From Candidatus Magasanikbacteria bacterium RIFCSPHIGHO2_02_FULL_48_18 (lineage in GTDB: Bacteria; Patescibacteriota; Patescibacteriia; Magasanikbacterales; UBA922): 64,000 nucleotides of DNA. Made by a program: the position numbers and the translations under genes. Numbering within the stretch: position 1 is the first letter of the stretch; every line of letters begins with the position of its first letter. This document shows, in pieces, positions 3,001 to 49,143 of the stretch. Under the pieces are notes generated by a model that did not search any database, was not told the origin of the DNA, and worked only from the letters and a program-made list of their open reading frames with translations. The DNA lies in assembly GCA_001784285.1 (NCBI GenBank), contig MFQC01000009.1:8828-72827 (forward strand), in the 5' to 3' direction.

Positions 3001-4125
3001 GCCTTTTTCCAATCCTTTCCCCACCAACCACCGTCCGGCCGCGTACCCGCTCGCGATGGTTGCCACTTTCTTTCCAAAATCAAGGACTCCCCCGACAAAA
3101 CTGCCCCCGACAGCGCCAACTTTTTGGACCGCCGTGAGCCCGACAAACAAAAATGCGATAGCAATAAAAAAATTTGCCATGTTTTCCCACGTGGTCACTT
3201 CGCTTGAGGACACTTTGAGCGTGCCCCCGGGAACGCCTGCCTGCTGAAGCACTTTTTGCGCGTCCGAGCCGTCAATATTGAGTCCCAAATCCGACATGGC
3301 AACGTCGCCCGTTCCAAGCGTGGCAAACGCAAGCCAGAGAAAGAATACCGCGACCGGCGCCACAATCACTTCTTTACCAAACATGGACCACCATTCTTTT
3401 GCGTACTGTTTGGTTTGCGGAATAACGTTCATGATATACGCCATTGGCGACAAAATAATCAACACCCACAATACAATGACCCGGAGTATCATCACAAACA
3501 AATACGCGCCAACAACCGCAAGTCCCATGAGCGCAAAAACAAAGGCCATAACCGCGCCGCCAAAGAGTTTAATGTCAATGCCTCCGGTCATAATATCTTC
3601 ACCGACCACATTGAGAATCGAGTTCATGCGGAGCATTTCAATAAGGTTGCCCCCGGCCGTGTTTTGGATGGCCGTCACAAAGGTCATGGTAAAGATATGC
3701 GCGGCGTCAATAATAAGGCCGGCAATGAGTTTGCTGAAATTGACAAGAAGCGCCGCCAAGATAAAATGCGCAAGCGTTTTTTTCCATTCGTATTGTTCAA
3801 TACCAAGGACCGTGCCAAACGCGATAACAAGCAATACCACCACAAAAAACATATTGGCAACGTCGCGCACCATAAACCAGCCGATGACGACGGTCGGTGT
3901 GTCAACATAGCCATTATATTTTGCGAGTTCGACAAAAAATTTGAAGAAAAACATGGTCAAGCTCATGAGCACAGTGGCAAGCTCAATCAAAATCCACGAC
4001 GCAAAGTGCAAGAGCGCGTCAAAAACGCCGGTTGCGACATCACCCAGCAAATCAAAAATCGCGTTTGCCGGTGTGGCGGTGAAAACCAGCCCGGAGACAA
4101 CAAAAAATAAGAAGATCGGCGTCAT
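1..4125 (-). CDS. Large polytopic membrane protein with a C-terminal charged-repeat tail, possibly TrbL/VirB6-like. The 3' end lies beyond the window start, so more than 1375 aa are encoded here.
   Basis: I translated this by hand. The minus-strand frame is open and stop-free from 4197 down to position 1. The six-frame track omits it, presumably because there is no stop in the window. The start is ATG 4125..4123, giving MTPIFLFFVVSGLVF.... The first roughly 330 aa contain at least eight strongly hydrophobic segments. They are followed by a K/E/D-rich soluble region with recurring motifs (EYQGY, EYHGYQ, EYKEY, WMxKxHxDEY). There is no Shine-Dalgarno site, as with most genes in this window. Confidence 0.8.
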   Translation of the reverse strand, partial: MTPIFLFFVVSGLVFTATPANAIFDLLGDVATGVFDALLHFASWILIELATVLMSLTMFFFKFFVELAKYNGYVDTPTVVIGWFMVRDVANMFFVVVLLVIAFGTVLGIEQYEWKKTLAHFILAALLVNFSKLIAGLIIDAAHIFTMTFVTAIQNTAGGNLIEMLRMNSILNVVGEDIMTGGIDIKLFGGAVMAFVFALMGLAVVGAYLFVMILRVIVLWVLIILSPMAYIMNVIPQTKQYAKEWWSMFGKEVIVAPVAVFFLWLAFATLGTGDVAMSDLGLNIDGSDAQKVLQQAGVPGGTLKVSSSEVTTWENMANFFIAIAFLFVGLTAVQKVGAVGGSFVGGVLDFGKKVATIASGYAAGRWLVGKGLEKGKKSLMNAPFIGGRSWIRAGKRLDEFRRQNKYIRHIPLIGGYNEEYQDKLDDRVEAVKKQQKDSRAKDMSKNEPPLSLAGTALVNKVFGQIPILKRLGQVDYEWDDEKGDFKYEQERVEKKNADGTTAYEMRDKVDKDGNKIKQKKYVGIVGLDAMTARRNFAEYQEMAAIQMRSPENKKSREHRNRERLLKEGRQLVVAAEDHEFEGWMEKEHADEYQGYAALDDEGKKAFREKKRTTTVKQQKEVEEDAPSFIDEFRHTPEFVEDEDKKFRNWIKAKDPVQYNGYKEMNTLQQWEFKKQHLEEFRKDSMVAPEQTQQFERWLQKENAGAYVNYTAADEPGKTKLITDKQKKKVTKSVEVQKDLGSLDEEFAKDPEVSAEQLKQFGQWLEVEHPNEYKEYAALSSDKSRSGWMKFTQIGADQEVKVEDEFLADPEIVAQQNKQFDAWMQKKHGDEYHGYQGMDEAGKAEFKRRKQKKTIKDERGKEVVIDSDSRLEEFRSNPANVKAVGDTISGINHPERWKGSKRTWVPKRDEGVYSRASRNAAQYIVQHETNRVAEEKLKEAQSKATEAVWMGPLGKKLAEQLGEAEIGAKIGEDIVKGMKNAHLEKVFESSLDKFRKMKDKGNLDLWLLQGNDAASVFARAIQQAKFAEEHEENMAIVKGETQSEVEGTFIEAPAQGKATYAQSFVASAKRIAESLNRVDEAGRAEFGGAALMRLAFHREQARMQGKEGVSMDVQKHMYGMLSNLAENANLDDAINSMGQAIERYETDEEYRNGLSPAERDEFEATKRAFGPEGEFKMLERVLNSEQRFVGEDGKVLMVPDGKGGEREAASVDELLENNVHGIEHKEHLIENADGSVVTQEEFLNNKYGAMTAVKKGSYYDEQGIILRDAEGNAITQLSAGQQVLEGQGKIKKIKKDGFADKDGKIIRIEDPNKGKKDWQTASSVQELFAGQVVLKGAFLKGGKVLKDDRGENITSPEQVFDAAMKGIERKYLGFIG

Positions 4126-4293
4126 CCATTTTTTTGCTCGGAAGAGCGACGTTATTTTTTTTCCAACATGCTTCACAGCCAAGAAATCATGGAGTGATCA
4201 ATTGTGAAGAAGTATAGCATAAAAAAGAAAAAAAATGGAGAAAAAATCGTTATTTTGGGGATAGTATTTCATAAACACGTTATCCACTTTTTA

Positions 4294-4325
4294 TCCTTGA
4301 CAAACCTTTGTCACCTTGACAAAAC
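4294..4325. promoter_or_regulatory. Candidate operator: inverted repeat TGACAAA-cc-TTTGTCA plus a third CTTGACAAA half-site.
   Basis: The sequence CCTTGACAAACCTTTGTCACCTTGACAAAACGG lies between the small-RNA locus and the start of the membrane-protein gene. Confidence 0.3.
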
Positions 4326-4399
4326 GGCTTTTTTGTGCTTTAATAGAATTGGAGAATTGTGTTTATTTTTTCGCTTGAAAAAAGCAAAAAGCTCTTTAA

Positions 4400-4519
4400 A
4401 AAAACAAAAAGGCTTGCACACACAAGCCTCCTTCGGTGGTGGACCGTGGGGGAATTGAACCCCAAGAGTGAGGATGGTAAGCCTACTCGTGCACCTGCAC
4501 ACACGGCCCATAGTCCACC
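4400..4519 (-). ncRNA. Small RNA 1, about 120 nt: a tRNA-like or Y-RNA-like element, unclassified.
   Basis: A sigma70 promoter lies upstream on the minus strand: TTGTTG, a 17-nt spacer, TATACT, then 7 T residues to the G start. The transcript begins GGUGGACUA and carries a T-loop-like GGGGUUCAAUUCCCCC hairpin. ACGGUCCACCA near the 3' end pairs perfectly over 7 bp with the 5' GGUGGAC. It ends in an intrinsic terminator, GGCUUGUGUGUGCAAGCC followed by UUUUUGUUUUUUU. No anticodon arm can be folded, so it is not called a tRNA. Confidence 0.5.
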
Positions 4520-4525
4520 AAAAAA

Positions 4526-4554
4526 AGTATACCATAAAAGAAAATCCTCAACAA
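4526..4554 (-). promoter_or_regulatory. Sigma70-type promoter for small RNA 1.
   Basis: On the minus strand, -35 TTGTTG sits at 4549-4554 in plus coordinates. A 17-nt spacer separates it from -10 TATACT at 4526-4531. The presumed start site is 7 nt downstream. Confidence 0.5.
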
Positions 4555-4709
4555 AGAATTTATGTTGAGGACTTTCTCCGGGATTCACCCGACCGAATAT
4601 GCAGTTTTATACGAAGTAGGTTTACCATCCTAAAACAAGGATACCCCATTTTAAAAACCCTGTCAAGTGGAAAAATGATAGATCACTCCATCCAAACAAA
4701 CCAATTGAG

Positions 4710-4738
4710 ATAGAGTAATCCATCGTTCTTTCACAAAA
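4710..4738. repeat. 29-bp direct repeat ATAGAGTAATCCATCGTTCTTTCACAAAA, first copy. The second copy is at 5017-5045. It marks the unit boundary of the tandem duplication.
   Basis: Exact string match between 4710-4738 and 5017-5045. Confidence 0.85.
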
Positions 4739-4860
4739 ACAAAAAGGCTTGCACACACAAGCCTCCTTCGGTGGTGGACCGTGGGGGAATTGAACCCGTT
4801 CCACTGTGTGTCAAGTACAGCATGCTCACCAGATACACTACTGGCCCTTACTAGTCCACC
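4735..4860 (-). ncRNA. Small RNA 2, a diverged tandem paralogue of small RNA 1, about 126 nt.
   Basis: It shares the 5' GGUGGACUA and 64 nt of 3' end with small RNA 1 (T-loop-like hairpin, ACGGUCCACCA, terminator). Repeat A at 4400-4463 equals repeat A at 4735-4798. The middle body is unrelated. An extended -10 (TGTTAATAT) lies upstream at 4867-4875. Confidence 0.45.
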
Positions 4861-5308
4861 AAATTTATATTAACATAAAAATCTCCCCGGAGGAAGATCT
4901 TTACGTTGACACACAGTTTCAACCAGTAGAAATCTAGTTGCTGTACAAAAATACAATATCACATATCTGGAAACTTTGTCAAGCGAAAGCCCGATGGTTT
5001 ACCCGATTAAAATACAATAGAGTAATCCATCGTTCTTTCACAAAATGACAATTCTCTCCATAATGGACGAGAACTGTCTTACAAATACAGCGCGTGTGAG
5101 GCGGAAATTGCTCTGCTTCCGGAAATACCCGGGAGAGAGCCATGAAAGCCTAATAATATTGCGAACTCCTAAAAGCAACACGGCGCCTGCCGAATGGAGC
5201 GGTTGGATGTGTCATCCTGATCAGAATGACATACCCAACTGCTCCACGGACAAGGCGAAACCGTGGGACCACAATGCCGCATCCAGGCGGCGAGACAGGA
5301 GGTGCCAC

Positions 5309-6043
5309 ATGGCACGTTTCATCGCCCTCGCCGCCACCCTGGCGGCGTGCTTCTTCCTCGCGTGCGAGGAGGAAGGGACTGGTCCCACCGACGGGACCAC
5401 TGCGACGACAACGGGCTCCGCCGCAGGCGAGCCCACCACCCCCAGCAACGACGGCAACGACTGCACCGACAACAACCCGTGCACCGAGGAGACGTGCGAC
5501 GGCGACGTTTGCACGACCCATACTGAGTCGTGCAACGACAACGGATGCACCGAGGAATGGTGCAACCAATGGGGGTGCTCCAGTTGCACCAACTGGAGCA
5601 GTGGCGCCTCGGGGTGCACAGGCACCCCGGGCGGCCCTACTGCCCCCATTGTCGACCCCGACCCCCCTGGCGACGACCCCGTCCCCCCGCCGGAGGTCGA
5701 CTGCTCGGCCTGGACAACTCTCCTTTCCGGCACGTTCTACGAGCCGGAGCTGATCGGGGAGTTCGAAGTCCCTGGTTTTATTCAGTACCTCGAACCGGAC
5801 TTCGAGGGGATCGTCGGCGCGGGCTACGGCCTGTGCCGGTCGTCTGTTGATGACGCAATCGGCGTCGTCGACAACGTGTGGGGTGTGCTCGATGGAGCAG
5901 GAAAGAACATCGCCTGTGGACCGTTCCCGGGCGATAGTGTGCTCCACTTCGAGCCGATCGACAGCGACTGCATCAAAATCGGAGGGACTGCCCTTACAAA
6001 CTGGAGCATCCCCAACGATTTTTTGATTGCATGCCGACTGTGA
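5309..6043 (+). CDS. GC-rich lipoprotein that is Cys-, Asp- and Thr-rich, with CxxxNPCTxExC-type repeats.
   Basis: AGGAGG lies 6 nt upstream of ATG 5309. The signal peptide with lipobox reads MARFIALAATLAAC. The repeats read CTDNNPCTEETCDGDVCTTHTESCNDNGCTEEWC. Local GC is roughly 65% against roughly 48% in the flanks. The longer track ORF from 5045 is probably an N-terminal over-extension. Confidence 0.7.
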   Translation: MARFIALAATLAACFFLACEEEGTGPTDGTTATTTGSAAGEPTTPSNDGNDCTDNNPCTEETCDGDVCTTHTESCNDNGCTEEWCNQWGCSSCTNWSSGASGCTGTPGGPTAPIVDPDPPGDDPVPPPEVDCSAWTTLLSGTFYEPELIGEFEVPGFIQYLEPDFEGIVGAGYGLCRSSVDDAIGVVDNVWGVLDGAGKNIACGPFPGDSVLHFEPIDSDCIKIGGTALTNWSIPNDFLIACRL

Positions 6044-6326: not shown

Positions 6327-9300
6327 TTACTTCTGCTCCGGCACCACAATAATAACACCATGATAATAGGTCCATCGTTCTTTGTTATAATTATCCTCAC
6401 ACTCTTTATTTCCTCCGGCATTAAAATCATTATACAACCCCTCCTCACTCGGAATCATATCCTTATTCTTCCCGCCCGGAATCCATGCCGGGCCGCCGGT
6501 CGCGGAACTCTTTGACGCGTTGCACCAACCCCAGTTGTCAAGGACCTGTACCCGCGGGCGGTACGCGCACACTTTGGACGGTTCATAGCCAACCAAATCC
6601 ACGACGCCTTTTTTCTGCCACTCGGTGAGCGCGGAAAAATCCACATTCGCGCTTCCTGAAGAACATTCATACGTATACTCGGCCTTAAACGGCTTGTCGA
6701 CGCACGCGCGGTCGCTGTTGCCAAAGCGCGGTTTATTGTATGAATCAGTGTATGTTTGTTGGTACGATGGAAGATCTTTTTCCTTATAACACAAGAGGTC
6801 GTCAAATCCGAGAGCATGCGGACAATCGTCTTCTTTGTCGTACGCTTTGCAGGTCATAAGGTCGGGAAGCTGTTCTGAGCCGCCGCCCCAACACACCCCA
6901 ATATCGCCTTCGGAGAATTCGCAGAACGGTTTGTAGTTTTCGTAATACCCATGCGTTTTTTCGTTCGTAATATAACCGGTTGCCGAATCGTCCCAATCAA
7001 TCATAATGCGCCGGATGGGCATATGATTATCGTCGGCCGCGACAAAAAATTCGGCTGTGGCTTTGAACGTTTTTTGGGCTATATGCATGGTCGGTTCCGG
7101 CGCGTTGTTTGGCGCTTCGTCCGGATCATTATTGGGATCACGATCATAATTATACTTTGTGCCATTTTTTCCTGTAACAGTAAAATTGTGTTTGTCACCC
7201 GCAGTACATGGTCCATGTTCTCCATAACAACGGTATGGATTGAGCGAATAGACAACAGGCGGGCGATTATTGGTTGGTTTGTTATACTCTGATCCTTCAT
7301 CCCATGCCGTTTTACTCTCAAACTCATCCGGCTTCTCGCCCGTTTTGCGCATTTTTATAGAAAATGTTTTTGCAAACAATTGAGCGAGCCGACTCTTGCC
7401 AATATAATCCGGATCATAACTAGCATAATATGACCCAATGCCAAATTCCATATCACCGGGAATCGTTAAACCATCGCCCAAACTACTGCATCGGAAATCA
7501 TTGGTACCACTCCAATCCGGGATTGTTTGCCACATGTAATCCCATAAATAATCTGAACCACTTGGACCAATATTATCATCCGCCACGGGTTCGGCATTCA
7601 GTTCATTCGTACCCGCATAGATATTTTTTCCAAACAATTTTCCGCATGCGTATGGAACGCCCTGGTTATCATTAAAAGTATATTTGCGTAAGATACTATC
7701 GGTTTCCAAATCATCTTCAATTAAATCGAGAGACCCATATGGTGGATTTTCTGTTTCAAACCATTTTACCTCATCACTGAAAAATTTTGGTTCGCCTACA
7801 TCCCAGTGGGGTGATGGCGGATAAATTTGAGATGCCTGCCACACACGATTGGTCCACGCCTTATTCGTCGGTTGATCCGTATCAATCTTGGTGTCATCGT
7901 AGACGCTCGCAAATTCAGTACATCGGGGGTTGAGCTCAACCAGAACAGAGAGAAGCGCATGTCTTCCTACAGCATGATTTTTAACATCGTCATCATCATT
8001 TTTATATCTCTCGCTATATTTATACCACAAATTACCCCCGTCATAAGAGAGTTTTCCATCTCCATTATTGAATCGAATCATCCACACATTGTATGGCGCT
8101 TTCGCTTGTGTTTCTATAGGCACATTATACAAACTTTCTTCAATTATACTACGATATATTGTGTTTCCATCATCTTCTCCACTTTGGAAAATAGCGATAC
8201 CATAGACATGCTTTCCGTCATTAGAATCCCCTGTATACGCATCTTTGTTTATTCCAAAAAATTGCACAGCCTGAAATTTCTTTGTTTTGCCGAGAGCAAA
8301 TTCTTTCACACTAAAAGCATACGTTTCATCTTTTGGCGCATCCTCATGAAGAGGAGACTGGGGATTGTCTATTTTCATTGCTTGGAGATTTTCAAAATCT
8401 ATTTCAAGCCCTGGATAAAAATGAGGTAAATTGAGTTCATTATAAGCACCCGGATCTCCTGCCAACATCATCGGGCCCATATGAAATTTCTTGACATCTT
8501 GTTCATACAGATCCCCCTGCATTCGATAATCCTTGCCAAAGGTACCAATAATATACTTGGCAATAGGAGTCTTTCCTTTTCCATCTTCATCCCAAGCCTT
8601 TGTCTCTTCTACGTCGGTATATATATAACCGGAAGCATCCGTGACCGGAATTTTTTCGCTCAGCATGGACCACCAGCCCGGGCTGTCAATCCATAATACT
8701 TCCGTATTGGGACTTCCTTTCCCATCGTTAATGCCATGCCAACCATACAATTTCATAAACGTATATATTTTTTTCTGGTACGCTAAAGACTGCAATTTCA
8801 AATCGCTTCCGAGCTCGCCGGTAGTCGCCCCCTTTGGAATATTCATGGGTGGGAGATCGGCGATATTATCATATTGCGTACCGCCATCTGACCACCATGT
8901 AACCCAAAGAGGAGGCGCATTCAAAAGTGAAGTCCAGCGCTCATCGCCAGTATCCCCCGCAAGATCGTCTATTTCTGGACCCAAAATATCTTCCAATTCA
9001 ATATATACCGGAGCATCGCTATCATCATAGGTAAGAGAATTAGAATGAAAAATTTTATAATACATATCCTTTGAATAAGTTAACCCAGAGCTAGGATAAG
9101 CATAATTTATTGCTTTCAACATTTCGACACCACTCAACACCATACTTTGGTTATAGGCCGGCGCGGCGGCGGCGACCGTGCAATACACCTGGCCCTTGCC
9201 ATTATTGGAATCCAATGCCACATCATAGCCGGTTGTCGGATCGTTGTTATAAATATCAACACCGGTCACATTGACGTCCAACGGCAACCATGTTTGACAT

Positions 9301-12300
9301 GCATAGAGGCCGGTGCCACCTCCCAATGGGCGGCTGAGATCGCGCTCCAGACAAAAACCGCTTGTTCCCACGTGCATGGATTTGTTGGTATAAGGCGATT
9401 CTTTGCAAATCAATCCGTCGCCGCACTGACCGTCGTCGGTTTGGCATGGCTTGCCTATATTTCCCGCGTCTTCCACTTCGCCCGACCCCGAAAGGCCCGA
9501 ATCCGCCGGCAATTGACACGTTCTCGGACCGTGGCTTGCTTGCCCGAGCGGCCAATACCCAACATTGCCATCCGCATATTCGTTAACGAGATAACTGCAC
9601 GAACAGTCGCCCTTTTGGCAGATATTCGCTTTGTCGTATCCTTCTATTTTTTGCGTATATAATTTGAAAAACGAAGGCGACGGCGTGTTTCCTTCCACGT
9701 CTTTTTGTAGATCTTTTGCAAAATTGACCGGAAACGGACTGTCTTCTTCCGGATAGACTTTACAGCTTGCCGGGATAAGATCATCCTTGGTAAATTCATC
9801 CTTTTCACCCAAGCCCGAAATTGGGTAGACGCATTCGCCGCTGTAACACTTTCCTTTGCTGTCCTCGCCGCATAAGGCTCCATCATTTTTCGGCACTACA
9901 TTGCCAGAGACTGTTTTAAAACAAGAACTTTGATCCGGATTGGACGACGAATCGGCATAAAATTTGTACGCGAGGTAGCTGGTTTTCCCGGTCGTGCCGC
10001 TGTCAATGCCAATATAGGTAAAATCATTGATTTGGTATCGGTTAAAAAGCGAGTAGCCCGTATACTCCGGATCGCCATACCACGTCGTGTCGCGGGCAAT
10101 GTATTTTTCTTCAGTCAAAAACTTGGACTCATGCGGGTAATCGCTCTGTTCCACCCAATCCACGCAATCTTTGCCATCTCGTTCGGTGCATGCCCGATAA
10201 TCTTCGCACACGTCAAGCGTCAGTCCCGTTTCTTGCTGTTGTTTTGTCTGCGACGACCGGCAGGCCAGCCACTCGGCGCATACGCGATCGCGATTCACTT
10301 TCAAAATGATATTGCTGTCCCCGCCGGACACGCTACTTGCTTGTTTTGGCGAGACCAAATTGTCATTATTTTTTTCGCTGTCCGTATACGTCGCCTGGGC
10401 AAGATACGGACGGGTTGACTCGTCCACCTTATTCAACAACACGCACCCTTCTTTTAAGCTCACCTTGCCGCCGCATTCGTCAATACGATTGGTAATAGTA
10501 CTGTTGAAAATAACGGGATATGGGGTGCCGTTCGGATATTTGGCCGTTTTGTCAACCGGATCAACCAACTCGGTACAGCCATTAAATTGTTCCGGGCACT
10601 GCCCCACCAATCCATCATATTGAAATGCGCCATTGGAATAAATACCAAACGATGTGTCGGCAAGAATATACCCCGGATAACACGGAATTTTATTTTTATT
10701 TTGGCACATGCCGGAAGCGCATTCTTGATCGGCAGTACACAATGATCCGTTGGTACATTCGCCCACATCTTTCTTTACCCACCCGGAACGGGTAATACCG
10801 GTCTTGTCGACAAAAGACTCCTGATAGACGCATTGCGCGTTGCCATTTTTGAGCGGATCTTTAAAGAAAGACACCGTGTTTCCGGAATTGAACTGGCCGC
10901 ATCCGAGCAAATCCTCGCGGCACAGCACGCCTTCCGGACCAAGATATTTGTCCGGATTGTTTTTGATGTACTCTTTCTCAAAAGAATATGATCCCGCCGC
11001 AGTAAACCCGTCCGGGACCGCCTGTTCGCGCAATGCGATTTTTTCACATCCCAAAAATGCCTGATCGCACACGGTATTTTTGGTTTTGGTAAGGAAAATG
11101 GGGTCGTTTTCGGGCGTATCCGCGCCAATCAGCACGCTCGAATCATCCACAAACAAAATATCCGGCGAGGTATTGGTGCTGTTTTGTTGCACGGCAAGAA
11201 ATGTCACAAACGGCTGCAACTCAAATTTCCCAAAAGAATACGTTGCATCGGGCAATGCTATGGGGCCGGGAATATAACATATTTTTGAACCGGTTGGAGG
11301 CGTGCAGGTATGGTTGGCTCCATTCAAATTAACCGTGCAGGTATTCCCAGACGAGGTATTTTTATAGCACGCAATGTTGTAGACGATCCGGTCTTCCGCG
11401 CCATCCATGGCAATGGTATTTTGGGTGTCATATAGCGCGGTACATCCGACTGCTTCTGGCCGGCAGAGCGACGCAAAACCGGTCGCGTACCACAGCGTAT
11501 TTTGCGTATCCGTGTACATTTGACATCCCAACGCTTCGCCCGGCAACCCGTCGGTCGGGTCGCTGTCGCACGCTATAGGCGCGTTTGCACTCACCAATCC
11601 GCCCTCATACTCTATCGTGCGTTGCCATGAATTTTTGATAAGATGATATTGATCCACGAGACGCGTCAGGCGCACATTGTCCAGAAAATATCCTCCCGGT
11701 GTACCTTCGCGTTTGAATACCAAAGAAACCGGATCGGTTGTGTTGCCGGTAAATTGAACAGGACCGATATGATACAATTGCCAGGACTCCTGGAGCTCGA
11801 TTTTATTTTCCTTGTTCAAGAGAGGATCAAAGGTAAAATACCAGCTCGTCTCTGTCTTGCCATTTTGCGACAAGTTGATGGACAATTGTTGCCCCGCGAC
11901 GCCGCGCGCCCAGAACGAAAGCTCGTACCAATTGGCGGCATCCTCTGCATTGCCGCTTTGGATGGTTCCGGTTGCAATGATCCGTTCCACTTTTTCGGTA
12001 TTGACCAATAACGAATACAGCCCGACTTGGATAGATTCGGCCGCGACGGAAATGCTTCCGGCGGCGATATCGACTTTTTTCCAATCTTTTTTGGCATCGT
12101 TCAGGGCGTTTGCGTCGTCTCCGGACGGTTCAAAAATATCAAGAAATACCTGTTCGACATTGTTTCCCGAATTGCCTACATACAAACGGCACCCGCTGGC
12201 TTCTTTGGGACAAGCATTTGCCTGGCCGGGCGTATTGATGGTGTTATACACGCACGATCCTCCGGAGGCCGGATTATTTTCGTCGGGTTTGTATGCTCCG

Positions 12301-15300
12301 CCGTTCGCGCACACCATACAGCTCGCGGTACTCTCTGCCCACAATCCTTTTCGTTCGGCGCACAATTGTTTGGACGTATCGAGCGACAAAAGATCGTCTT
12401 TGACCAAGGTTACACTGGTTTTGCGCAATGGATGGCACAATTCATCGACCAGCGCGACCTCCGACAATACGCGATAAAACACCTGCCCGCTTTTATCATA
12501 GAGCGCACGACAATCAAGGCTTGCCGCGTCAATACTCCCGGGATTATTCACTAATATGCTATAGGTATCTTCATTGCACACGGCCTGTAAATTTTTGAGC
12601 GCCATATAACTCGTGTCCGCGTACGCGGGGGATCCTTTCGGGTAAGCGGCCGTGAGCGCATTTTTTACCACTGTATCTGTGACTAAATCAAACATCTTCG
12701 TGAGATACGAATTTTTGGTATCGTCGATCTGGAGCAGGCGATGCGTCCGCAAGACATACCCCTTCTGCACCGACCCTTCCCACGAATAAAATATTTTTTC
12801 ATTATCATCGGCCGGTTTTTCACAATAGGTGAGATCCGTGTAATATTCCAAACCTTCGCCGCCTTTTTCCACAGTATCGATATTGGTAAATTCATCACAG
12901 CCTTCATACGCAACCGTACAGGAGAGTCCCTGTTCTTTCATGAGATCTTGCGCGTATGTCGGCACAAAATACAATGGAAATTGCGCCCCCTCAAAATTGG
13001 TCTCCGCTTGCTTGTACGCGTCATACCCGACACAGCTCAGATCGCACTGATTATTTCCAATAAGCGCGGGAACCGCAGGTCCGCCCGCAAGCGGGGTATA
13101 GGCATCGCACCCAACTTCTTCGGCAACGCACGCTCCCGCAAAGTTGCCGCATTCGGGATTGCCGGAAAGAAAATTCAAATCCGCTTTTTTCTTTGGGTAT
13201 TCAATCGCCTCGGTTCCCGCATTGGTATCATAACATCCCAAATAGTCCGGCGCTTTTTTGAGATACAGGGTATTCTCCGGGCTCGTATCTTTCACATACG
13301 CGTTTGCCGCCGCGTCGAATACGCGAGGATAAAAGGCCGAACAGCCCTCATTGTCTCCGGTACACGTTTGCGAAGCGATTTTTGCATTGAAATAAAGTGT
13401 TGGATTTCTCCCCGCTTTTTTATACTCTTTCCATATTCCCGAATCGAGCATGCCCGGATATACCCATGCTTCATTGACCTGTTCCGCCCCATACGCGGAA
13501 CACCCCACGGATTGGGCCGAACACTCCCCGTACTCAAGCGTTCGCGTGAGGTAGGATGACACTGTGTTCGTTCCCGCGTTGACAAATGTTTGACAGGAAG
13601 TAAATGGCAAAGGACACGAATCTCCCGGTATTCTCCAGGTATTTTCTTCCTTTGTGCAGTATCCATAGAGTTGCGGCGCCTCGCACACGCTGTTTGGCCC
13701 TTCTGAAATGCATGTAGAAAAATCAAGACATTCTTCCATGCGCTTTGCGCCATCGCTCGTCAGCAATTGATCGCTATACCCATAGGCCATACAGCGGGTT
13801 TCCGGAACTCGAATCACCCAGTTCGGATCAATAAGATGACAATATGGATATTCCGCGCTCGGCGCTCCGCTTGGGTGGCACTGATCAAATCCTTTGACAA
13901 CCTCTTCAAGCTTCCATGGGTTGTCGGACGGCGACTTGAGCGCGGCAATTTCAAACCCAATGGGAAGAATGCGCGCTTTTCGTATTTTTTGGATATTGGA
14001 ATAACAATAGGCCTCGCGGAAACAATTGCGGTCCCGATTTTGCAATTCTCGTTTGGGAGAAATCAACTCCCAGTCGCCATGCAAAAACGACCCTTTCGTG
14101 TCAGCGAGCGCTTCGCCAATGGTCATGGCCCGGCCGGTCTTTGCCTGCGCGATGGCGTTTGCAAGCCCTTGTTCCATGACACAATTATTGATGCCAACCG
14201 GAGTATTGCCCTCCGGACACGCGGTAAATTGCTGAACGATATTAAAATTTTCTATCTGAACAGGCGTCTTGGTCAATAAAAAGCCAAAGACCTGTTGTGC
14301 AATGCTCTTTTTACTTGCTCCGCTTGGCGATTGGGAATACGGGTTGACCACCGAATCCGGATTTGCCGCGTCTTCTCCTCCTCCGCCTGAGGAAGGAAAC
14401 AATCCTCCGGTCAATAATTGCTCCAACAACTGCGTCGTCAAGGTATTCAAAAATACCGACGCGGCATACGGAAGTATTTGAATGGTTGGCGCGGCGTAAA
14501 TAGCACTAATCTGCCCGGCAGTAATTTCTTTTGATTTCAATCCAGTCAATTCCTTCGATTCTTCTTTGACCAGTTGTGCCGGTGAAATAGTTGTTCCGGA
14601 AATAAGTTCTTTCACTGCCTTAAAGCCGTCTCCTTCCATCCGCTCTTGGAGAGCGCCCAATTCCTGCTGGAAACTTTTCTGCCGCACCTGGCCCAAAGCG
14701 CCGAGCGAAACTCCAAAATCCGTACTGTCCGCGTTGAGAGAGGCGCTAAATGATTCGGCAATAAATTTTTGTCCGTAGGGACCGAATTTTTCTTCAAACG
14801 CTTCCGGGCTATACGCATTTTTGAGATCTTGCCAGGAACAATCCAGCCCTCCACCCATAAATTTTTGACTTAATCCCAACTGCAGACTGATTTGCAACGC
14901 TAAATTTGGCTGACAAATATCTATCCCAAATGCTTTTTCCCCCAACGTCTGGATGGATTGCGCGGCGGCATCAAGCGCCACATTTTCAAAATAGGTGGCC
15001 GCCCCTTCCTGAAAGACCAACGGCTCTTCGCCAGCCGCTTTGGTGGAAAGCCATGTCGCGGCGTCGTACGCCAACTTATTTAAAAAATAGGATACACCTT
15101 CAATGAGGGCGCTTAATCCCCCAGCAAGGAGACTCTGCCACATGTTGAAATCCAATTTTTTTTCCGCTTTTTCGGCCAGCGCTCTGGCTTCATTTCTGGC
15201 TTGAATGGCTTCGCGTTGGGCAGTCGCAGGCGCGTCAGTCCATTGTGCAAAGACCATTGTCGGAAAAAAAGAAAAAAGAAAAAGACAGAGACAAAAAATT

Positions 15301-15362
15301 GGCTTCATTTTTGAAGAAAAAAAATGGAAATAATGTTGTTTTCTTGAAAAGAAAGGAATCAT
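6327..15362 (-). CDS. Giant secreted Cys-rich surface protein, 3011 aa.
   Basis: A single uninterrupted ORF. The N-terminus MIPFFSRKQHYFHFFSSKMKPIFCLCLFLFSFFPTMVFAQ looks like a signal peptide; MKP at 15308 is an alternative start. The ATG overlaps the upstream gene's TGA, giving ATGA at 15359-15362. The protein has many Cys and Gly/Asn/Asp-rich stretches. No confident domain could be assigned by eye. Confidence 0.8.
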   Translation of the reverse strand: MIPFFSRKQHYFHFFSSKMKPIFCLCLFLFSFFPTMVFAQWTDAPATAQREAIQARNEARALAEKAEKKLDFNMWQSLLAGGLSALIEGVSYFLNKLAYDAATWLSTKAAGEEPLVFQEGAATYFENVALDAAAQSIQTLGEKAFGIDICQPNLALQISLQLGLSQKFMGGGLDCSWQDLKNAYSPEAFEEKFGPYGQKFIAESFSASLNADSTDFGVSLGALGQVRQKSFQQELGALQERMEGDGFKAVKELISGTTISPAQLVKEESKELTGLKSKEITAGQISAIYAAPTIQILPYAASVFLNTLTTQLLEQLLTGGLFPSSGGGGEDAANPDSVVNPYSQSPSGASKKSIAQQVFGFLLTKTPVQIENFNIVQQFTACPEGNTPVGINNCVMEQGLANAIAQAKTGRAMTIGEALADTKGSFLHGDWELISPKRELQNRDRNCFREAYCYSNIQKIRKARILPIGFEIAALKSPSDNPWKLEEVVKGFDQCHPSGAPSAEYPYCHLIDPNWVIRVPETRCMAYGYSDQLLTSDGAKRMEECLDFSTCISEGPNSVCEAPQLYGYCTKEENTWRIPGDSCPLPFTSCQTFVNAGTNTVSSYLTRTLEYGECSAQSVGCSAYGAEQVNEAWVYPGMLDSGIWKEYKKAGRNPTLYFNAKIASQTCTGDNEGCSAFYPRVFDAAANAYVKDTSPENTLYLKKAPDYLGCYDTNAGTEAIEYPKKKADLNFLSGNPECGNFAGACVAEEVGCDAYTPLAGGPAVPALIGNNQCDLSCVGYDAYKQAETNFEGAQFPLYFVPTYAQDLMKEQGLSCTVAYEGCDEFTNIDTVEKGGEGLEYYTDLTYCEKPADDNEKIFYSWEGSVQKGYVLRTHRLLQIDDTKNSYLTKMFDLVTDTVVKNALTAAYPKGSPAYADTSYMALKNLQAVCNEDTYSILVNNPGSIDAASLDCRALYDKSGQVFYRVLSEVALVDELCHPLRKTSVTLVKDDLLSLDTSKQLCAERKGLWAESTASCMVCANGGAYKPDENNPASGGSCVYNTINTPGQANACPKEASGCRLYVGNSGNNVEQVFLDIFEPSGDDANALNDAKKDWKKVDIAAGSISVAAESIQVGLYSLLVNTEKVERIIATGTIQSGNAEDAANWYELSFWARGVAGQQLSINLSQNGKTETSWYFTFDPLLNKENKIELQESWQLYHIGPVQFTGNTTDPVSLVFKREGTPGGYFLDNVRLTRLVDQYHLIKNSWQRTIEYEGGLVSANAPIACDSDPTDGLPGEALGCQMYTDTQNTLWYATGFASLCRPEAVGCTALYDTQNTIAMDGAEDRIVYNIACYKNTSSGNTCTVNLNGANHTCTPPTGSKICYIPGPIALPDATYSFGKFELQPFVTFLAVQQNSTNTSPDILFVDDSSVLIGADTPENDPIFLTKTKNTVCDQAFLGCEKIALREQAVPDGFTAAGSYSFEKEYIKNNPDKYLGPEGVLCREDLLGCGQFNSGNTVSFFKDPLKNGNAQCVYQESFVDKTGITRSGWVKKDVGECTNGSLCTADQECASGMCQNKNKIPCYPGYILADTSFGIYSNGAFQYDGLVGQCPEQFNGCTELVDPVDKTAKYPNGTPYPVIFNSTITNRIDECGGKVSLKEGCVLLNKVDESTRPYLAQATYTDSEKNNDNLVSPKQASSVSGGDSNIILKVNRDRVCAEWLACRSSQTKQQQETGLTLDVCEDYRACTERDGKDCVDWVEQSDYPHESKFLTEEKYIARDTTWYGDPEYTGYSLFNRYQINDFTYIGIDSGTTGKTSYLAYKFYADSSSNPDQSSCFKTVSGNVVPKNDGALCGEDSKGKCYSGECVYPISGLGEKDEFTKDDLIPASCKVYPEEDSPFPVNFAKDLQKDVEGNTPSPSFFKLYTQKIEGYDKANICQKGDCSCSYLVNEYADGNVGYWPLGQASHGPRTCQLPADSGLSGSGEVEDAGNIGKPCQTDDGQCGDGLICKESPYTNKSMHVGTSGFCLERDLSRPLGGGTGLYACQTWLPLDVNVTGVDIYNNDPTTGYDVALDSNNGKGQVYCTVAAAAPAYNQSMVLSGVEMLKAINYAYPSSGLTYSKDMYYKIFHSNSLTYDDSDAPVYIELEDILGPEIDDLAGDTGDERWTSLLNAPPLWVTWWSDGGTQYDNIADLPPMNIPKGATTGELGSDLKLQSLAYQKKIYTFMKLYGWHGINDGKGSPNTEVLWIDSPGWWSMLSEKIPVTDASGYIYTDVEETKAWDEDGKGKTPIAKYIIGTFGKDYRMQGDLYEQDVKKFHMGPMMLAGDPGAYNELNLPHFYPGLEIDFENLQAMKIDNPQSPLHEDAPKDETYAFSVKEFALGKTKKFQAVQFFGINKDAYTGDSNDGKHVYGIAIFQSGEDDGNTIYRSIIEESLYNVPIETQAKAPYNVWMIRFNNGDGKLSYDGGNLWYKYSERYKNDDDDVKNHAVGRHALLSVLVELNPRCTEFASVYDDTKIDTDQPTNKAWTNRVWQASQIYPPSPHWDVGEPKFFSDEVKWFETENPPYGSLDLIEDDLETDSILRKYTFNDNQGVPYACGKLFGKNIYAGTNELNAEPVADDNIGPSGSDYLWDYMWQTIPDWSGTNDFRCSSLGDGLTIPGDMEFGIGSYYASYDPDYIGKSRLAQLFAKTFSIKMRKTGEKPDEFESKTAWDEGSEYNKPTNNRPPVVYSLNPYRCYGEHGPCTAGDKHNFTVTGKNGTKYNYDRDPNNDPDEAPNNAPEPTMHIAQKTFKATAEFFVAADDNHMPIRRIMIDWDDSATGYITNEKTHGYYENYKPFCEFSEGDIGVCWGGGSEQLPDLMTCKAYDKEDDCPHALGFDDLLCYKEKDLPSYQQTYTDSYNKPRFGNSDRACVDKPFKAEYTYECSSGSANVDFSALTEWQKKGVVDLVGYEPSKVCAYRPRVQVLDNWGWCNASKSSATGGPAWIPGGKNKDMIPSEEGLYNDFNAGGNKECEDNYNKERWTYYHGVIIVVPEQK

Positions 15363-18285: not shown

Positions 18286-21200
18286 TTATTGTTCTCCCTT
18301 TTCAATGGTAAACAGTCCGCCGTTTGTTCTCCCGAAATGTTCCGGAAAATACATTTCGCTTGCCATAGCCGGAAGATGATGAAAGGTCCCGGGAATGAGC
18401 GCGCGCACCGCGTAATCGATTTTGTAAACGCCGGGCGAGGCGTATTCTTTGAAAAGAAACAAGCGGTCATCATGCGTCTCTTGAAAATCCGGATAAAACC
18501 CGTAGGGGTCGTAATACCCGCCTTTGCCATAATACTCGTCGCTGTATTCGGTTTCTTCTTCCGTCTCGTAGCCGGAAAAAACGCTTTTATCCTCGGTCGC
18601 GAGGTTCATATTGACGAGCTCCATGCCGGCAGGAATCATATCTTCAATCGCAATAAAATTTCGCCCTTCAGGAATAGTGACGGTCAGGTGTCCGCGGAGC
18701 ACATCGCCGACCTTGGCGGAATTCAGCGGACGTTCCAGACGGACATCACTGAGCGCGTAGAGTCCTCGCTCGATCGTGAACCCCTGATCGCGCGGCGGTA
18801 TCTGTTCGATGGGTAAAAAATACTTGAGGGCAACGTCATAATACAATGTATTCTTTCGGGAATTCTTTGCCGATTTTGTGAAAGTAAGAGCGTTATTTTT
18901 GTTGAATGGAATATCGCCGAGCGGAATTGCTGTTTCATACTGGTCAAAAATCGTCTCCGGACCAAACGCGTACGATCCTTTCTCGCGCTCATTCAAAGAA
19001 ACTGCCAGGTCAAAGACCGACTCGGTTTCTCTTTGCCACAACAGATAGTCGGTCAAGGCGTCGGCCACAGTGACCGTATTGTTGGTCGATCCCCAGGCGC
19101 CCTGGTTGTCTCTTCCTGCCAACACCCACCGCAGGAGCTTGTCCAAAATATCGTTGTCCCGTTCGTCTTTTGCCAGGGCTTGAATATAGAGCGCCGTATT
19201 TTTTATCGGGGTTTCATAATAGTGATACAACGCTTGTTTGCCCGACGAAACAAAAGCGCCGCGCGCGTCAATGACGACGCGGTTATCCAGTTGTTTGAAG
19301 ACCGTGTCCTTTATTTTTTTACTGTATCCATCCAACACCACCATTGCGAGCTTTGCCAAGGCGACACTGCTCGCGTCTTCCTTAAGGTATTGATCATCGC
19401 CGACCAGCTGAAGAACTTTTTGTTTCATGGCCGACGATTGTTTTCCGTCATCTCCGGTGACAAAGGCGGCAAGAATAACGGCATCGTAATTTTTTGCATA
19501 CATGTCGCTTTGCAAAACCGTTTGACGCACATAGGCGACCGCCCGCTCCACGCTTGACGTATCAACCGAAAAACCAGCTTTATCCAAACGCTTGAGCACA
19601 TCAAGAATATGGATGGTGAGATAAAAATCGCTCGATCCGGCATAATAGCGAAACCCTCCGTCGCTGTTTTGTTTGGTATAGATGTCGCTCAGCCCTTTCT
19701 GAACGAGCGCATCAAGATCATATTCTGCCCCCTCAAAGAAAATCGGGCCAAGCGATAGTTTGTCGCCCACGTTTTTGAGCTGTTTGGCCCGCGCAAAGGC
19801 GGCAATGGTTTCAAGTTTGCTCGCGATTTGTTCCGAACAGCCGTACGGATAGTCAATCATGGACTGAAACGCGTCGCTCAAAAATACGGCGAGGGTCGCG
19901 CTTGCCTTAACCGTCACGCCGCCTTTGTCCGGAACAACATTGCCGGGAATATACACATATTCTTTGGCAACCGGCTGGGCGGTATAATTGGCGGTCGCAA
20001 CGGTTTCGTGCGTCTGATTCGGCGTGATGGGAATTGTACCCTCAACCGTATCGTCATACGCGTCATTTTTGACCGATGCGACAAAGCGGTGAAGCCCCCG
20101 TTCGCGGCCTTTCGGCGCGACTGCGTCAACGTATATCGTTTTGGTTTCGCCCGCCGAGAGCGTGATTTTTTCCTCGACCGTTTCCGGCAAAGACAGCGAA
20201 TCGCTCTTGAGGGTAAACGTCAGCTTTTGTTTTTTGCCGGACTGGTTGAAAACCTTCGCGCCAATTGAAAAGGCATCGCCCGGAACAACAAACCGAGGCG
20301 CAAGCGGGGTCAACATCACGTCTTTTTTGGAGACAAAGTCGGCGTATCCCGCGCCAACCTTGGTATCCTTGGTGACTCCCACCAATTCCGCCTGCCACTG
20401 CGTGAGATTATCCGGAAGGCGAAACGACGCGCTGGCTTTTCCGTTTGCATCGGTTTCAACAACGGCCTGCCAAAATGCGGTGTCCAAAAATGTTCCGCGT
20501 TTCTTTTTGGCAAGATCCCCTTCGTCGCCGCCTCCGCCCCCGCCTTTTCCGGGGGCGATATTCACCTCATGCAAGATATTTTTAATGTTGCTCGCGGTTG
20601 ATACGGTGAGCGGAAATCCATTATAGAAAAAAACCACCGGATTCTTTTTCGGGTTGCCTTTCAGGGCAAGAACACTCATATCCACGACGGCAACGGACAG
20701 TTCGGCTTGCACCGGTTTGCCTTCGTGGTCGCGCACCTCAAACGACAATGCCACGTCTTCTCCCGGAAGATAATTGGACTTGCCGGGTGTGACGTCAATC
20801 GTCAAATCTTTTTGATCGCGTCCGATAAAAAACTCCTGTTCGCCGAATTTGACATCAGGATCCGGCGAGAGAAGAACAACCGACGCGGAAATGTTCGGAA
20901 TATAGGCCTCGGCTATGGGAAACGTATAGCGATACATGTTGCCGGAAATATCGACGACGTCATAGCGATAGATGTTGCCCCGCTCAATGGCAATCAGCGC
21001 TTTTGCCTTTTCATAAGGAGATTGAATGATGATCTCCGCTTCTTCGCCCACGTCAAGCGTCGTATCGTTCACAATAAGGGAAAGCGACGTATCGTTTGAC
21101 GGGCGCACATCGGCAGGCCCGGTTCCATACACATACACGCGCGACGTTCCCGCGACCTCGTTGCCGCGGCCGTCTTTCCCGGAAACGCGCAGTTCATAGG

Positions 21201-49115: not shown

Positions 49116-49143
49116 ACAATACGAAGAAAAAGAATATTCAATA

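Follow-up and report, generated by a model that had tools for sequence, protein, structure and literature searches.

Among bacterial RNAs of tRNA-like form, the Y RNAs of the YrlA type have 5′ and 3′ ends that form the Ro-binding stem and a transfer RNA (tRNA)-like module without a CCA acceptor end, and the allo-tRNAs have a long variable arm and come from Acidobacteria, Clostridia and Proteobacteria. Allo-tRNAs divide a 12-bp acceptor branch 8/4 or 9/3, with a longer anticodon stem and a small D loop; some carry G3:U70 and insert alanine, and they have been proposed to be suppressors or regulatory RNAs, sometimes lying in irregular tandem arrays (PMC5389517). In Bacillus cereus, a chromosomal tRNA-like RNA named tRNA-Other is thought to be regulatory and to act outside decoding (PMC3399842). 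The subject of this work is a pair of tandem tRNA-like units in a 64,000-nt stretch (hereafter the window) of Candidatus Magasanikbacteria bacterium RIFCSPHIGHO2_02_FULL_48_18, contig MFQC01000009.1. The locus is filed among the non-canonical tRNAs or tRNA-like RNAs, and we read it, with belief and doubt evenly balanced, as encoding tRNA mimics that can be charged with alanine, each matched by an antisense RNA of its own in a cassette of two transcripts per unit.

The closest described RNAs are the allo-tRNAs, with which the RNA of the first unit (unit 1) and 11 relatives share a 12-bp acceptor branch split 8/4. Unlike the allo-tRNAs, most of which are of serine type and whose variable arm is long, these RNAs have a variable region of 1-2 nt, 0-1 nt linking the acceptor stem to the D stem, no linker from there to the anticodon-like stem, a D stem of 3-4 bp, an anticodon stem of 7-8 bp and an 8-nt loop; the antisense leader present here has not been described for allo-tRNAs. 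G1:C72, G2:C71, G3:U70, A73 and CCA are common to our RNA and to tRNA-Ala or the minihelix substrate of AlaRS, and canonical tRNA-Ala genes in metagenomes have the very same 7 bp of acceptor sequence, but our RNA has no NGC anticodon, an 8/4 instead of a 7/5 split, a compact core and a loop of 8 nt, and its score lies below the Rfam tRNA threshold (29 bits for RF00005; the whole window gave no Rfam hit at gathering thresholds). The RNAs recall tRNA-Sec (RF01852), the best Rfam match, in their extended acceptor and anticodon stems, their T stem of 4 bp and their D loop of 4 nt, at scores of 23.9 bits (unit 1) and 22.2 bits against a gathering score of 47. Unlike tRNA-Sec they lack a UCA anticodon, their loops reading CUUACCAU and CUUGACA, as well as a long variable arm, and their branch has 12 bp (8/4) rather than 13 bp. 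The tRNA-like domain of transfer-messenger RNA (tmRNA) resembles them in alanine identity (G3:U70, ACCA), in the D-region motif GACCAGGUU and in a UCGAC motif, whereas the pseudoknots and the tag reading frame of tmRNA are missing from what is a closed 73-nt cloverleaf; ARAGORN called no tmRNA in the window, and the Rfam tmRNA model matched only a 13-nt piece of the T arm of the second unit (unit 2), which at 10.6 bits is the top tRNA-clan match of that unit. The B. cereus tRNA-Other differs in architecture and identity and has no known cognate antisense RNA. The ColE1 RNA I/RNA II pair and type I toxin-antitoxin systems offer another parallel, in that a structured RNA with a YUNR-type loop (here CUUA and CUUG) faces a fully complementary partner and cognate specificity differs between paralogues; unlike in those pairs, the two RNAs here are neighbours on a single strand instead of overlapping on opposite strands, one of them is a tRNA mimic that ends in CCA, and no toxin open reading frame (ORF) or replication primer is evident.

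An alanine acceptor end on a compact cloverleaf

Two head-to-tail units of 310-335 bp each lie on the minus strand, as the original prediction had proposed. The 64-bp block that it placed at their 3′ ends is an exact repeat of 63 nt (4400-4462 and 4735-4797), since 4463 differs from 4798, and it widens to 68 nt at 97% identity; the block of T arm and acceptor exceeds chance by far, with none expected from shuffles. The 9-nt 5′ block GGTGGACTA (4519..4511 and 4860..4852), the ACGGTCCACCA near the 3′ end of both units and the 29-nt repeat at the unit boundaries, which is exact and unique within the window, were all found as described. The middles of the units had been called unrelated; a whole-length alignment shows them to be homologous, with near-identical ends and an interior about 45% identical. 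A T-loop hairpin GGGGTTCAATTCCCCC had been assigned to each unit and is present in unit 1; unit 2 carries CGGGTTCAATTCCCCC (CGGG) in its place, and its T stem therefore has only 3 bp.

The D arm and anticodon arm had been reported as absent. Unit 1 (4510..4437) has a clean four-arm cloverleaf as its minimum free energy (MFE) fold (-32.1 kcal/mol, z -2.9) and matches the covariance model R1 of a tRNA-like family introduced below (56.1 bits, E 5e-11, the E-values of this model being rough). The acceptor stem GGGCCGUG/CACGGUCC has 8 bp, or 9 with U-1:A73, and contains G3:U70. A 1-nt linker leads to the D stem GUGC/GCAC with the loop AGGU, followed by an anticodon-like stem of 7 bp with one bulged C that bears the 8-nt loop CUUACCAU, a variable region of 2 nt, and the T stem GGGG/CCCC with the loop UUCAAUU, after which come A73 and an encoded CCA. 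This geometry departs from the canonical 7/5 split, 2-nt linker, 5-bp anticodon stem and 7-nt loop. ARAGORN, run on the whole window, left unit 1 uncalled, and tRNA-Sec, at 23.9 bits, was its sole tRNA-clan match in Rfam at E<=10.

The sequence GGGCC.../...GGUCC-A-CCA is present in both units, and with it G3:U70, A73 and the 3′ CCA, the alanine identity set; in unit 1 the acceptor end reads GGGCCGU/ACGGUCC-A-CCA. G3:U70 and A73 suffice for alanylation by AlaRS regardless of the anticodon. Because the acceptor end has both, charging with alanine by AlaRS is predicted whatever the "anticodon", and the unit 1 RNA is a candidate AlaRS substrate. A metagenome scan with the T-arm and acceptor block gave 37 loci, nearly all of them canonical tRNA-Ala genes by ARAGORN; canonical tRNA-Ala genes with GGC, CGC and UGC anticodons share the GGGCCGU/ACGGUCC-ACCA end with unit 1. 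The G3:U70 acceptor stem is also common to a tRNA-Sec-like gene at another locus (L034, 1387-1463; SeC with anticodon UCA by ARAGORN), which has a 9-bp acceptor stem and a 6-bp anticodon stem and is possibly an alanine-inserting opal suppressor.

A 5′ GGUGGAC and a 3′ GUCCACC had been taken to form the terminal stem of each RNA. Their complementarity is perfect in both units; the helix is, however, a pairing between the leader and the 3′ end that rivals the acceptor stem, and not the mature terminal stem. In unit 1 the proximal leader GGUGGACUAU could pair with the 3′ end in two registers, either at GUCCACC(A) or at CCACC immediately beyond A73. In the fold of the 120-nt form the GGUGGAC helix moves to this second register and stacks on the acceptor stem. 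Removal of the proximal leader by RNase P is predicted.

Unit 2 shares the family architecture only in part, at 25 bits with model R1. Its acceptor, GGGCC(AGUA)GUG/CACGGUCC, is the 8-bp stem of the family broken by a 4-nt bulge, AGUA; the D stem is weak, a stem of 5-6 bp bears the loop (A)CUUGACA(C), and the A-CCA end is identical to that of unit 1. The loop CUUGACA(C) fits the family consensus N-U-Y-GAC/GAG-A-N, with which the unit 1 loop CUUACCAU has only the frame CU...CAU in common. The single gene that ARAGORN called in the window is unit 2, as a 76-nt tRNA-Ser(tga). We do not find this call credible: the variable region is 5 nt where tRNA-Ser would have a long arm, and the acceptor does not carry serine identity; in a 7/5 reading, two of the seven acceptor pairs and two of the five T pairs are mismatched. 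By its sequence, unit 2 is a decayed or diverged copy of an RNA of the unit 1 type.

A covarying family in Candidatus Peribacteria

The only architectural relative of unit 1 from the metagenome scan with the 3′ block was on an unassigned contig (L025). A scan of a genome collection with the pattern GGGCCGTG-N40-68-CCCCACGGTCCACC gave 17 loci, seven of which are chance matches in GC-rich coding DNA; the ten real elements all lie in Candidatus Peribacteria metagenome-assembled genomes (MAGs), two of which hold at least two elements each. These ten and the unassigned contig make up the 11 relatives with the 8/4 architecture of unit 1. They have an 8-bp acceptor stem, no linker, a 3-bp D stem with the loop AGGUN, an 8-bp anticodon-like stem, one variable nucleotide, a 4-bp T stem and A-CCA. 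The loop has 8 nt with the consensus N-U-Y-GAC-A-N, GAG replacing GAC in two orthologous loci, one of which (L045) has a canonical 7-nt loop, CU-GAG-AA.

In the 11-member alignment, 97% of cells are paired, against about 50% when the partners are slid. Changes on both sides of the pair are found for 8/8 pairs of the anticodon stem and 2/3 of the D stem, values that none of 500 sets of shuffled columns reached. The covariance model R1, built from this alignment, gives 79-97 bits to family members, 56 bits to unit 1, 30-45 bits to ordinary tRNA-Ala and 25 bits to unit 2. On these scores and on its architecture, unit 1 is placed in a covarying tRNA-like family found in Candidatus Peribacteria. 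Acceptor and T helices stack to 12 bp and D and anticodon-like helices to 11 bp, lengths that, judged from the secondary structure, would keep roughly normal tRNA dimensions. About 100 kb of Peribacteria sequence held no family member with a different acceptor stem, and in a viral collection a pattern freed of the acceptor constraint hit nothing but chance matches in coding DNA.

The Peribacteria elements have in common a motif upstream, GGTGTACG(T/A)TCGTAC, leader and trailer segments that pair as CCGAG/CTCGG, and a terminator, and they lie in housekeeping contexts. Some are found between adk and map, and others within a polysaccharide operon, flanked there by genes for a membrane protein and a glycosyltransferase. 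In more distant Peribacteria homologues the element is missing from the same junction in the polysaccharide operon, and it is therefore a lineage-specific insertion.

A scan of a viral collection gave one variant, on an IMG/VR contig (L060, 547-1019), with the same acceptor, D and T arms and no anticodon-like stem; GUACGUAC stands in its place and echoes the upstream motif of the Peribacteria elements. A standard tmRNA (83.6 bits with Rfam) follows 40 nt downstream of this variant, and the 5′ end of the tmRNA, GGGCCUGACCAGGUUUCGAC, resembles GGGCCGUGACCAGGUU...UCGAC of the family. Two orthologous Peribacteraceae loci (L044, 4270-4400, and L045, 1590-1470 on the minus strand) have identical hairpin arms, GGCGTTCCA/TGGAACGCC, with the loop inverted (TAGGGGTG vs CACCCCTA), and about 100 nt upstream of the element, after a terminator-like hairpin, each has a direct partial copy of the D/anticodon 5′ part of the element. 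Two further loci (L028, 3591-3729, and L031, 6063-6201) each have two tandem truncated tRNA-like hairpins that end in ...GTCCACCA, lie 5 nt apart and score 20-24 bits with model R1.

Predicted promoters, terminators and antisense leaders

The promoters proposed earlier, TTGTTG-17-TATACT (4554..4526) and TGTTAATAT (4875..4867), were both found, as were the intrinsic terminators, with hairpins at 4433..4406 and 4768..4741. They are named P2 and T2 here (Table 1), since each unit also has a stronger promoter upstream (P1), matching 10/12 consensus positions, and a leader antisense to the tRNA-like body, both of which had been overlooked. In both units P2 lies 6 nt upstream of GGUGGAC, as TG-N-TATACT in unit 1 and TG-T-TAATAT in unit 2. 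Independent transcription of the tRNA-like RNAs is plausible because of these extended -10 elements and a third copy of the motif before the downstream gene.

The predicted P1 starts near 4631 and 4946 put the antisense segment at the extreme 5′ end of the transcript. In unit 1, nucleotides 1-17 of the leader, AGGAUGGUAAACCUACU (4631..4615), are complementary at 16/17 positions to the anticodon-like arm (4487..4471), and imperfect complementarity reaches to about 4593 in the leader and takes in about 39 nt of the tRNA-like RNA, covering the 5′ strand of the acceptor, the D arm and the anticodon arm. In unit 2, nucleotides 1-26 (4946..4921) form three pairing blocks with the 5′ half of the tRNA-like RNA, and ACUGUGUGUCAA (4917..4906) is the exact complement of the loop and 3′ stem strand (4814..4803). 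The repeat finder returned both segments as inverted repeats, 4471-4487/4615-4631 (17 nt, 94%) and 4803-4814/4906-4917 (12 nt, 100%), and none of 2000 dinucleotide shuffles reached either of them. The leader transcripts probably stop after 70-95 nt because long hairpins followed by U-runs lie at 4577..4539 and 4907..4872 (T1); in unit 1 this hairpin has 15-nt arms with one mismatch, 17 pairs in the MFE fold and a 9-nt loop, and it overlaps the -35 region of P2.

The pairing is specific to the cognate partner. Leader and body align with scores of 34.5 (unit 1) and 28.5 (unit 2) within a unit, and of 12.5 and 14.0 across units. Relative to the separate folds, cofolding gains -19.0 (unit 1) and -8.8 (unit 2) kcal/mol for cognate pairs and -1.8 and 0.0 kcal/mol for non-cognate ones, and the duplex z-scores are -4.9 (unit 1) and -2.2 (unit 2). 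Read-through transcripts from P1 to the final terminator fold as rods, with z -8.5 for unit 1 (232 nt) and z -4.9 for unit 2. No other target of the loop or arm sequences was found in the 64-kb window.

Three other accounts of the leader region were considered and rejected. A conserved small leader ORF is set aside, as no frame is conserved between the units; the leader ORFs of 22-23 codons are not hydrophobic and lack a Shine-Dalgarno sequence. A T-box is rejected despite the likeness of GGUGGAC to the T-box GGUGGNAC, because GGUGGAC lies after the terminator and pairs in cis. Reading the inverted repeats as an invertible promoter is rejected because their sequences are unrelated between the units.

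Table 1. Predicted features of the two units, in window coordinates
Feature	Coordinates	Strand	Basis
P1 unit 1, TTGACA-17-TATCCT, predicted start near 4631	4638..4666	-	promoter scan
Unit 1 leader/antisense RNA, about 95 nt	4535..4631	-	repeat finder, shuffles, cofold
T1 unit 1, hairpin AGAAAGUCCUCAACA/UGUUGAGGAUUUUCU + UUUUAU	4539..4577	-	fold
P2 unit 1, extended -10 TGgTATACT; weak -35 TTGTTG at 4554..4549	4526..4534	-	consensus match
Unit 1 proximal 5′ leader GGUGGACUAU	4510..4519	-	sequence; folds of 83-nt and 120-nt forms
Unit 1 tRNA-like RNA, predicted mature G4509..A4437	4437..4509	-	MFE cloverleaf, model R1
T2 unit 1, 12-bp hairpin AAGGAGGCUUGU/GCAAGCCUUUUU + U-run	4396..4433	-	identical to unit 2 copy
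29-nt unit-boundary repeat, copy 1	4710..4738	-	exact repeat
P1 unit 2, TTGACA-16-GATATT or TTGACA-18-TATTGT, TG upstream, predicted start near 4946	4953..4982	-	promoter scan
Unit 2 leader/antisense RNA, about 75 nt	4870..4946	-	repeat finder, shuffles, folds
T1 unit 2, hairpin + U-run	4872..4907	-	fold
P2 unit 2, extended -10 TGTTAATAT	4867..4875	-	consensus match
Unit 2 proximal 5′ leader GGUGGACUAGUAA, complementary to 3′ end	4848..4860	-	sequence, fold
Unit 2 tRNA-like RNA, degenerate paralogue	4772..4847	-	model R1, 25.4 bits
T2 unit 2	4731..4768	-	hairpin scan
29-nt unit-boundary repeat, copy 2	5017..5045	-	exact repeat

We propose that P2, through its extended -10 element, would start an RNA at GGUGGAC, from which RNase P would remove the 10-13-nt leader at G+1; the terminator-bearing trailer would be removed as well. 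The product would be a 73-76-nt RNA with its encoded A-CCA exposed, which AlaRS could charge via G3:U70 and A73. P1, a near-consensus sigma-70 promoter about 150 nt upstream, would make an RNA of 70-95 nt that is halted at T1. This transcript could pair with the D and anticodon-like arms, in trans or, on read-through, in cis, and unfold the cloverleaf, so that leader pairing would limit the pool of folded, chargeable RNA or yield a substrate for RNase III. The two units would then be two orthogonal leader/tRNA-like pairs.

Alternative readings, setting and significance

Several points weigh against the proposal of chargeable mimics gated by antisense RNAs. The promoters and terminators have been recognised solely by their match to a consensus. 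Only one genome is known to carry the cassette, and, because no close relative of this genome was found, the leader-body pairing rests on two paralogues and not on phylogeny; the antisense leader is missing from the 11 related loci by exact inverted-repeat search and by duplex z-scores, and is not a feature of the family. G3:U70 and the entire acceptor/T region were imposed by the search patterns, so their invariance in the family is uninformative. The fold of unit 2 is no better than that of shuffles (z -0.12), and this unit may be a pseudogene. Inverted repeats can also stay complementary through quasipalindrome correction at the DNA level, with no RNA function required, and stacked helices that keep the L-shape fit a real role in decoding equally well. 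A decoding role is an unlikely alternative, in which translational tRNAs of alanine identity would read GUY (GAC), CUY (GAG), GGU (ACC) or four-base codons, with Val/Leu/Gly-to-Ala recoding or +1 frameshift suppression. It agrees with the tRNA dimensions kept by the 12-bp acceptor/T branch and the 11-bp D/anticodon stack, with the U at position 33 and A at position 37 of the loop and the canonical 7-nt loop of L045, and with the four-base anticodons that ARAGORN read in two family members; 8/4-type allo-tRNAs with G3:U70 inserted alanine in Escherichia coli (PMC5389517), and in yeast mitochondria a tRNA-Thr whose loop has 8 nt decodes triplets (PMC7609411). Three paralogue groups with the same loop are, however, spread across the small Peribacteria genomes, two of them together in each of two MAGs, which is odd for one isoacceptor, and the loop is kept as a motif while the stems drift. 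Bacteria do not normally use an anticodon with A34 such as unit 1 would have (ACC or UACC), a housekeeping decoder would hardly be expected to come with an antisense RNA that unfolds it, and constitutive Val-to-Ala mistranslation would be costly. The 8-nt loop with its non-bacterial A34, the paralogues with one loop and drifting stems and the unfolding partner together suggest that RNA of the unit 1 type is not a routine decoder, a regulatory role or one as a non-ribosomal alanine donor being likelier.

Less probable still, in our judgement, is that the units are functionless, decaying duplicates of a gene derived from tRNA-Ala, with a complementarity that is a quasipalindrome upheld by template switching or gene conversion at the DNA level. 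The bulged acceptor, 3-bp T stem and shuffle-level fold of unit 2 point that way, as do the identical 63-nt and 29-nt blocks beside middles of about 45% identity, which resemble recent gene conversion, and the failure to find relatives of the cassette; but unit 1 is intact and matches a covarying family, both units retain two promoters, two terminators and cognate-specific pairing despite unalignable sequence there, and in both the antisense segment starts exactly at the predicted P1 start. There is a slim chance that the locus is an RNA-RNA addiction module akin to toxin-antitoxin systems, in which the antisense RNA would neutralise a harmful, mis-charging mimic or the tRNA-like RNA would repress the 22-23-codon leader ORF at its start codon. 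Two orthogonal cognate pairs in tandem would suit such a module, an AUG located 3 nt from the predicted start of the unit 1 leader can pair with CAU of the unit 1 loop, the locus adjoins a type IV secretion gene of VirB6/TrbL type, and irregular or allo-tRNAs, some lethal in E. coli, have been reported near toxin-antitoxin loci (PMC5389517); the leader peptides as characterised above argue against it, and the Peribacteria members stand alone in housekeeping operons with no antisense partner. To ordinary genes we give very little credence: the call of tRNA-Ser(UGA) for unit 2 is offset by the missing long variable arm, the mismatched acceptor and T stems, an acceptor identity of Ala rather than Ser and tRNA-clan Rfam matches of at most 10.6 bits. 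The same holds for duplicated attachment (att) sites of an integrated element, a fallback of the original prediction; the shared block is the 3′ part of a tRNA-like gene, the usual target of integrases, but the repeats, 335 bp apart, enclose the RNA cassette alone, no integrase was found in the 1.1-kb gap or its two flanking genes, and phage BLAST showed no similarity of the locus to phages. Least credible of all is the reading preferred at the outset, that of YrlA-type Y RNAs acting with a Ro/Rsr protein. The RNAs are small, tandem and paralogous with a T-arm mimic, as YrlA RNAs at times are, yet no Y RNA is among the 17 Rfam hits at E<=10, the two ends pair as an acceptor stem carrying A-CCA and not as a Ro-binding helix (the GGUGGAC helix being the leader pairing), an anticodon-like arm is present and covaries in the relatives, and no match to TROVE or vWA, the domains of the rsr gene that usually lies beside YrlA, was found by Pfam among the 26 large ORFs of the window, in which the original prediction had likewise seen no rsr/Ro gene. 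What stood of the original prediction is that these are paralogous, separately terminated small-RNA genes with features of tRNA that are not ordinary tRNAs, and its other fallback, a novel small-RNA family, came near the truth.

The cassettes occupy a 1.1-kb gap between two divergent genes. The minus-strand neighbour is a large gene that starts near 4125-4197 and extends past the start of the window; its N-terminal membrane domain is that of a VirB6/TrbL-type type IV secretion protein, with its best relatives in Candidatus Magasanikbacteria and other Patescibacteria. The plus-strand neighbour, at about 5309-6043, encodes a cysteine-rich lipoprotein, for which the sole database match was to Candidatus Magasanikbacteria bacterium RIFCSPLOWO2_12_FULL (GCA_001783105.1), with no homologue besides itself; the ten contigs read for this gene all seem to represent a single locus, and a base-by-base comparison of one of them (L058) showed no difference from window 4001-5400. 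Contigs with homologues of the VirB6/TrbL-like gene are without tRNA-like units, and either begin at the gene or show other neighbours. Many of these homologues are annotated as partial: the sole long contig examined at that end (L001) starts 6 nt before the gene, and another (L003) has about 560 nt only upstream of it, with a frame-disrupted copy. Assemblies may be prone to break just upstream of this gene, at repeats like these units. Between the unit 1 terminator and the same gene (4200-4345, minus strand) lie a TTGTCA-AGG-TGACAA palindrome and a repeated TTTGTCAAGG, and at 4207-4229 the extended -10 motif, TATG-N-TATACT, occurs for the third time; from its sequence, the region looks like an operator/promoter of the secretion gene, with a promoter type common to unit 1.

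The remaining window is ordinary chromosome, in which the Pfam scan identified a penicillin-binding protein (transglycosylase and transpeptidase domains), alpha-2-macroglobulin, KsgA, a class-I peptide release factor (PCRF/RF-1 domains), GroEL, NusA, YidC, ArgRS, TyrRS and ValRS. Three very large ORFs lie on the minus strand (6327-15362, 18286-24771 and 43479-49184). Their products are a 3011-aa protein with no Pfam match, the alpha-2-macroglobulin (2161 aa), which adjoins the penicillin-binding protein (here also with the C-terminal domain of that family), and a 1901-aa surface protein rich in fibronectin-III.

A literature search found no description of this family, nor any earlier case of a tRNA mimic coupled to an antisense transcript of its own from the same strand, here in two mutually orthogonal copies. 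If real, the cassette would be a compact, programmable on/off control of a chargeable RNA. Because ARAGORN and Rfam miss or mislabel such genes, the sets of tRNA and tRNA-like genes reported for the candidate phyla radiation (CPR) are incomplete. The 8/4 family, with its alanine signature and conserved enlarged loop, would be either an unrecognised adaptor for non-ribosomal alanine transfer or regulation, or a natural case of alanine mis-incorporation or four-base decoding in minimal-genome organisms. More speculatively, and with rather low confidence, we suggest that the CPR may hold an undescribed class of non-decoding, alanine-charged 8/4 tRNA mimics, built here into self-contained, orthogonal RNA-RNA switches in which a strongly transcribed antisense RNA would unfold its own mimic and gate a non-ribosomal use of Ala-tRNA; that use may be cell-envelope aminoacylation, ribosome rescue or tailing, or toxin-like mistranslation.

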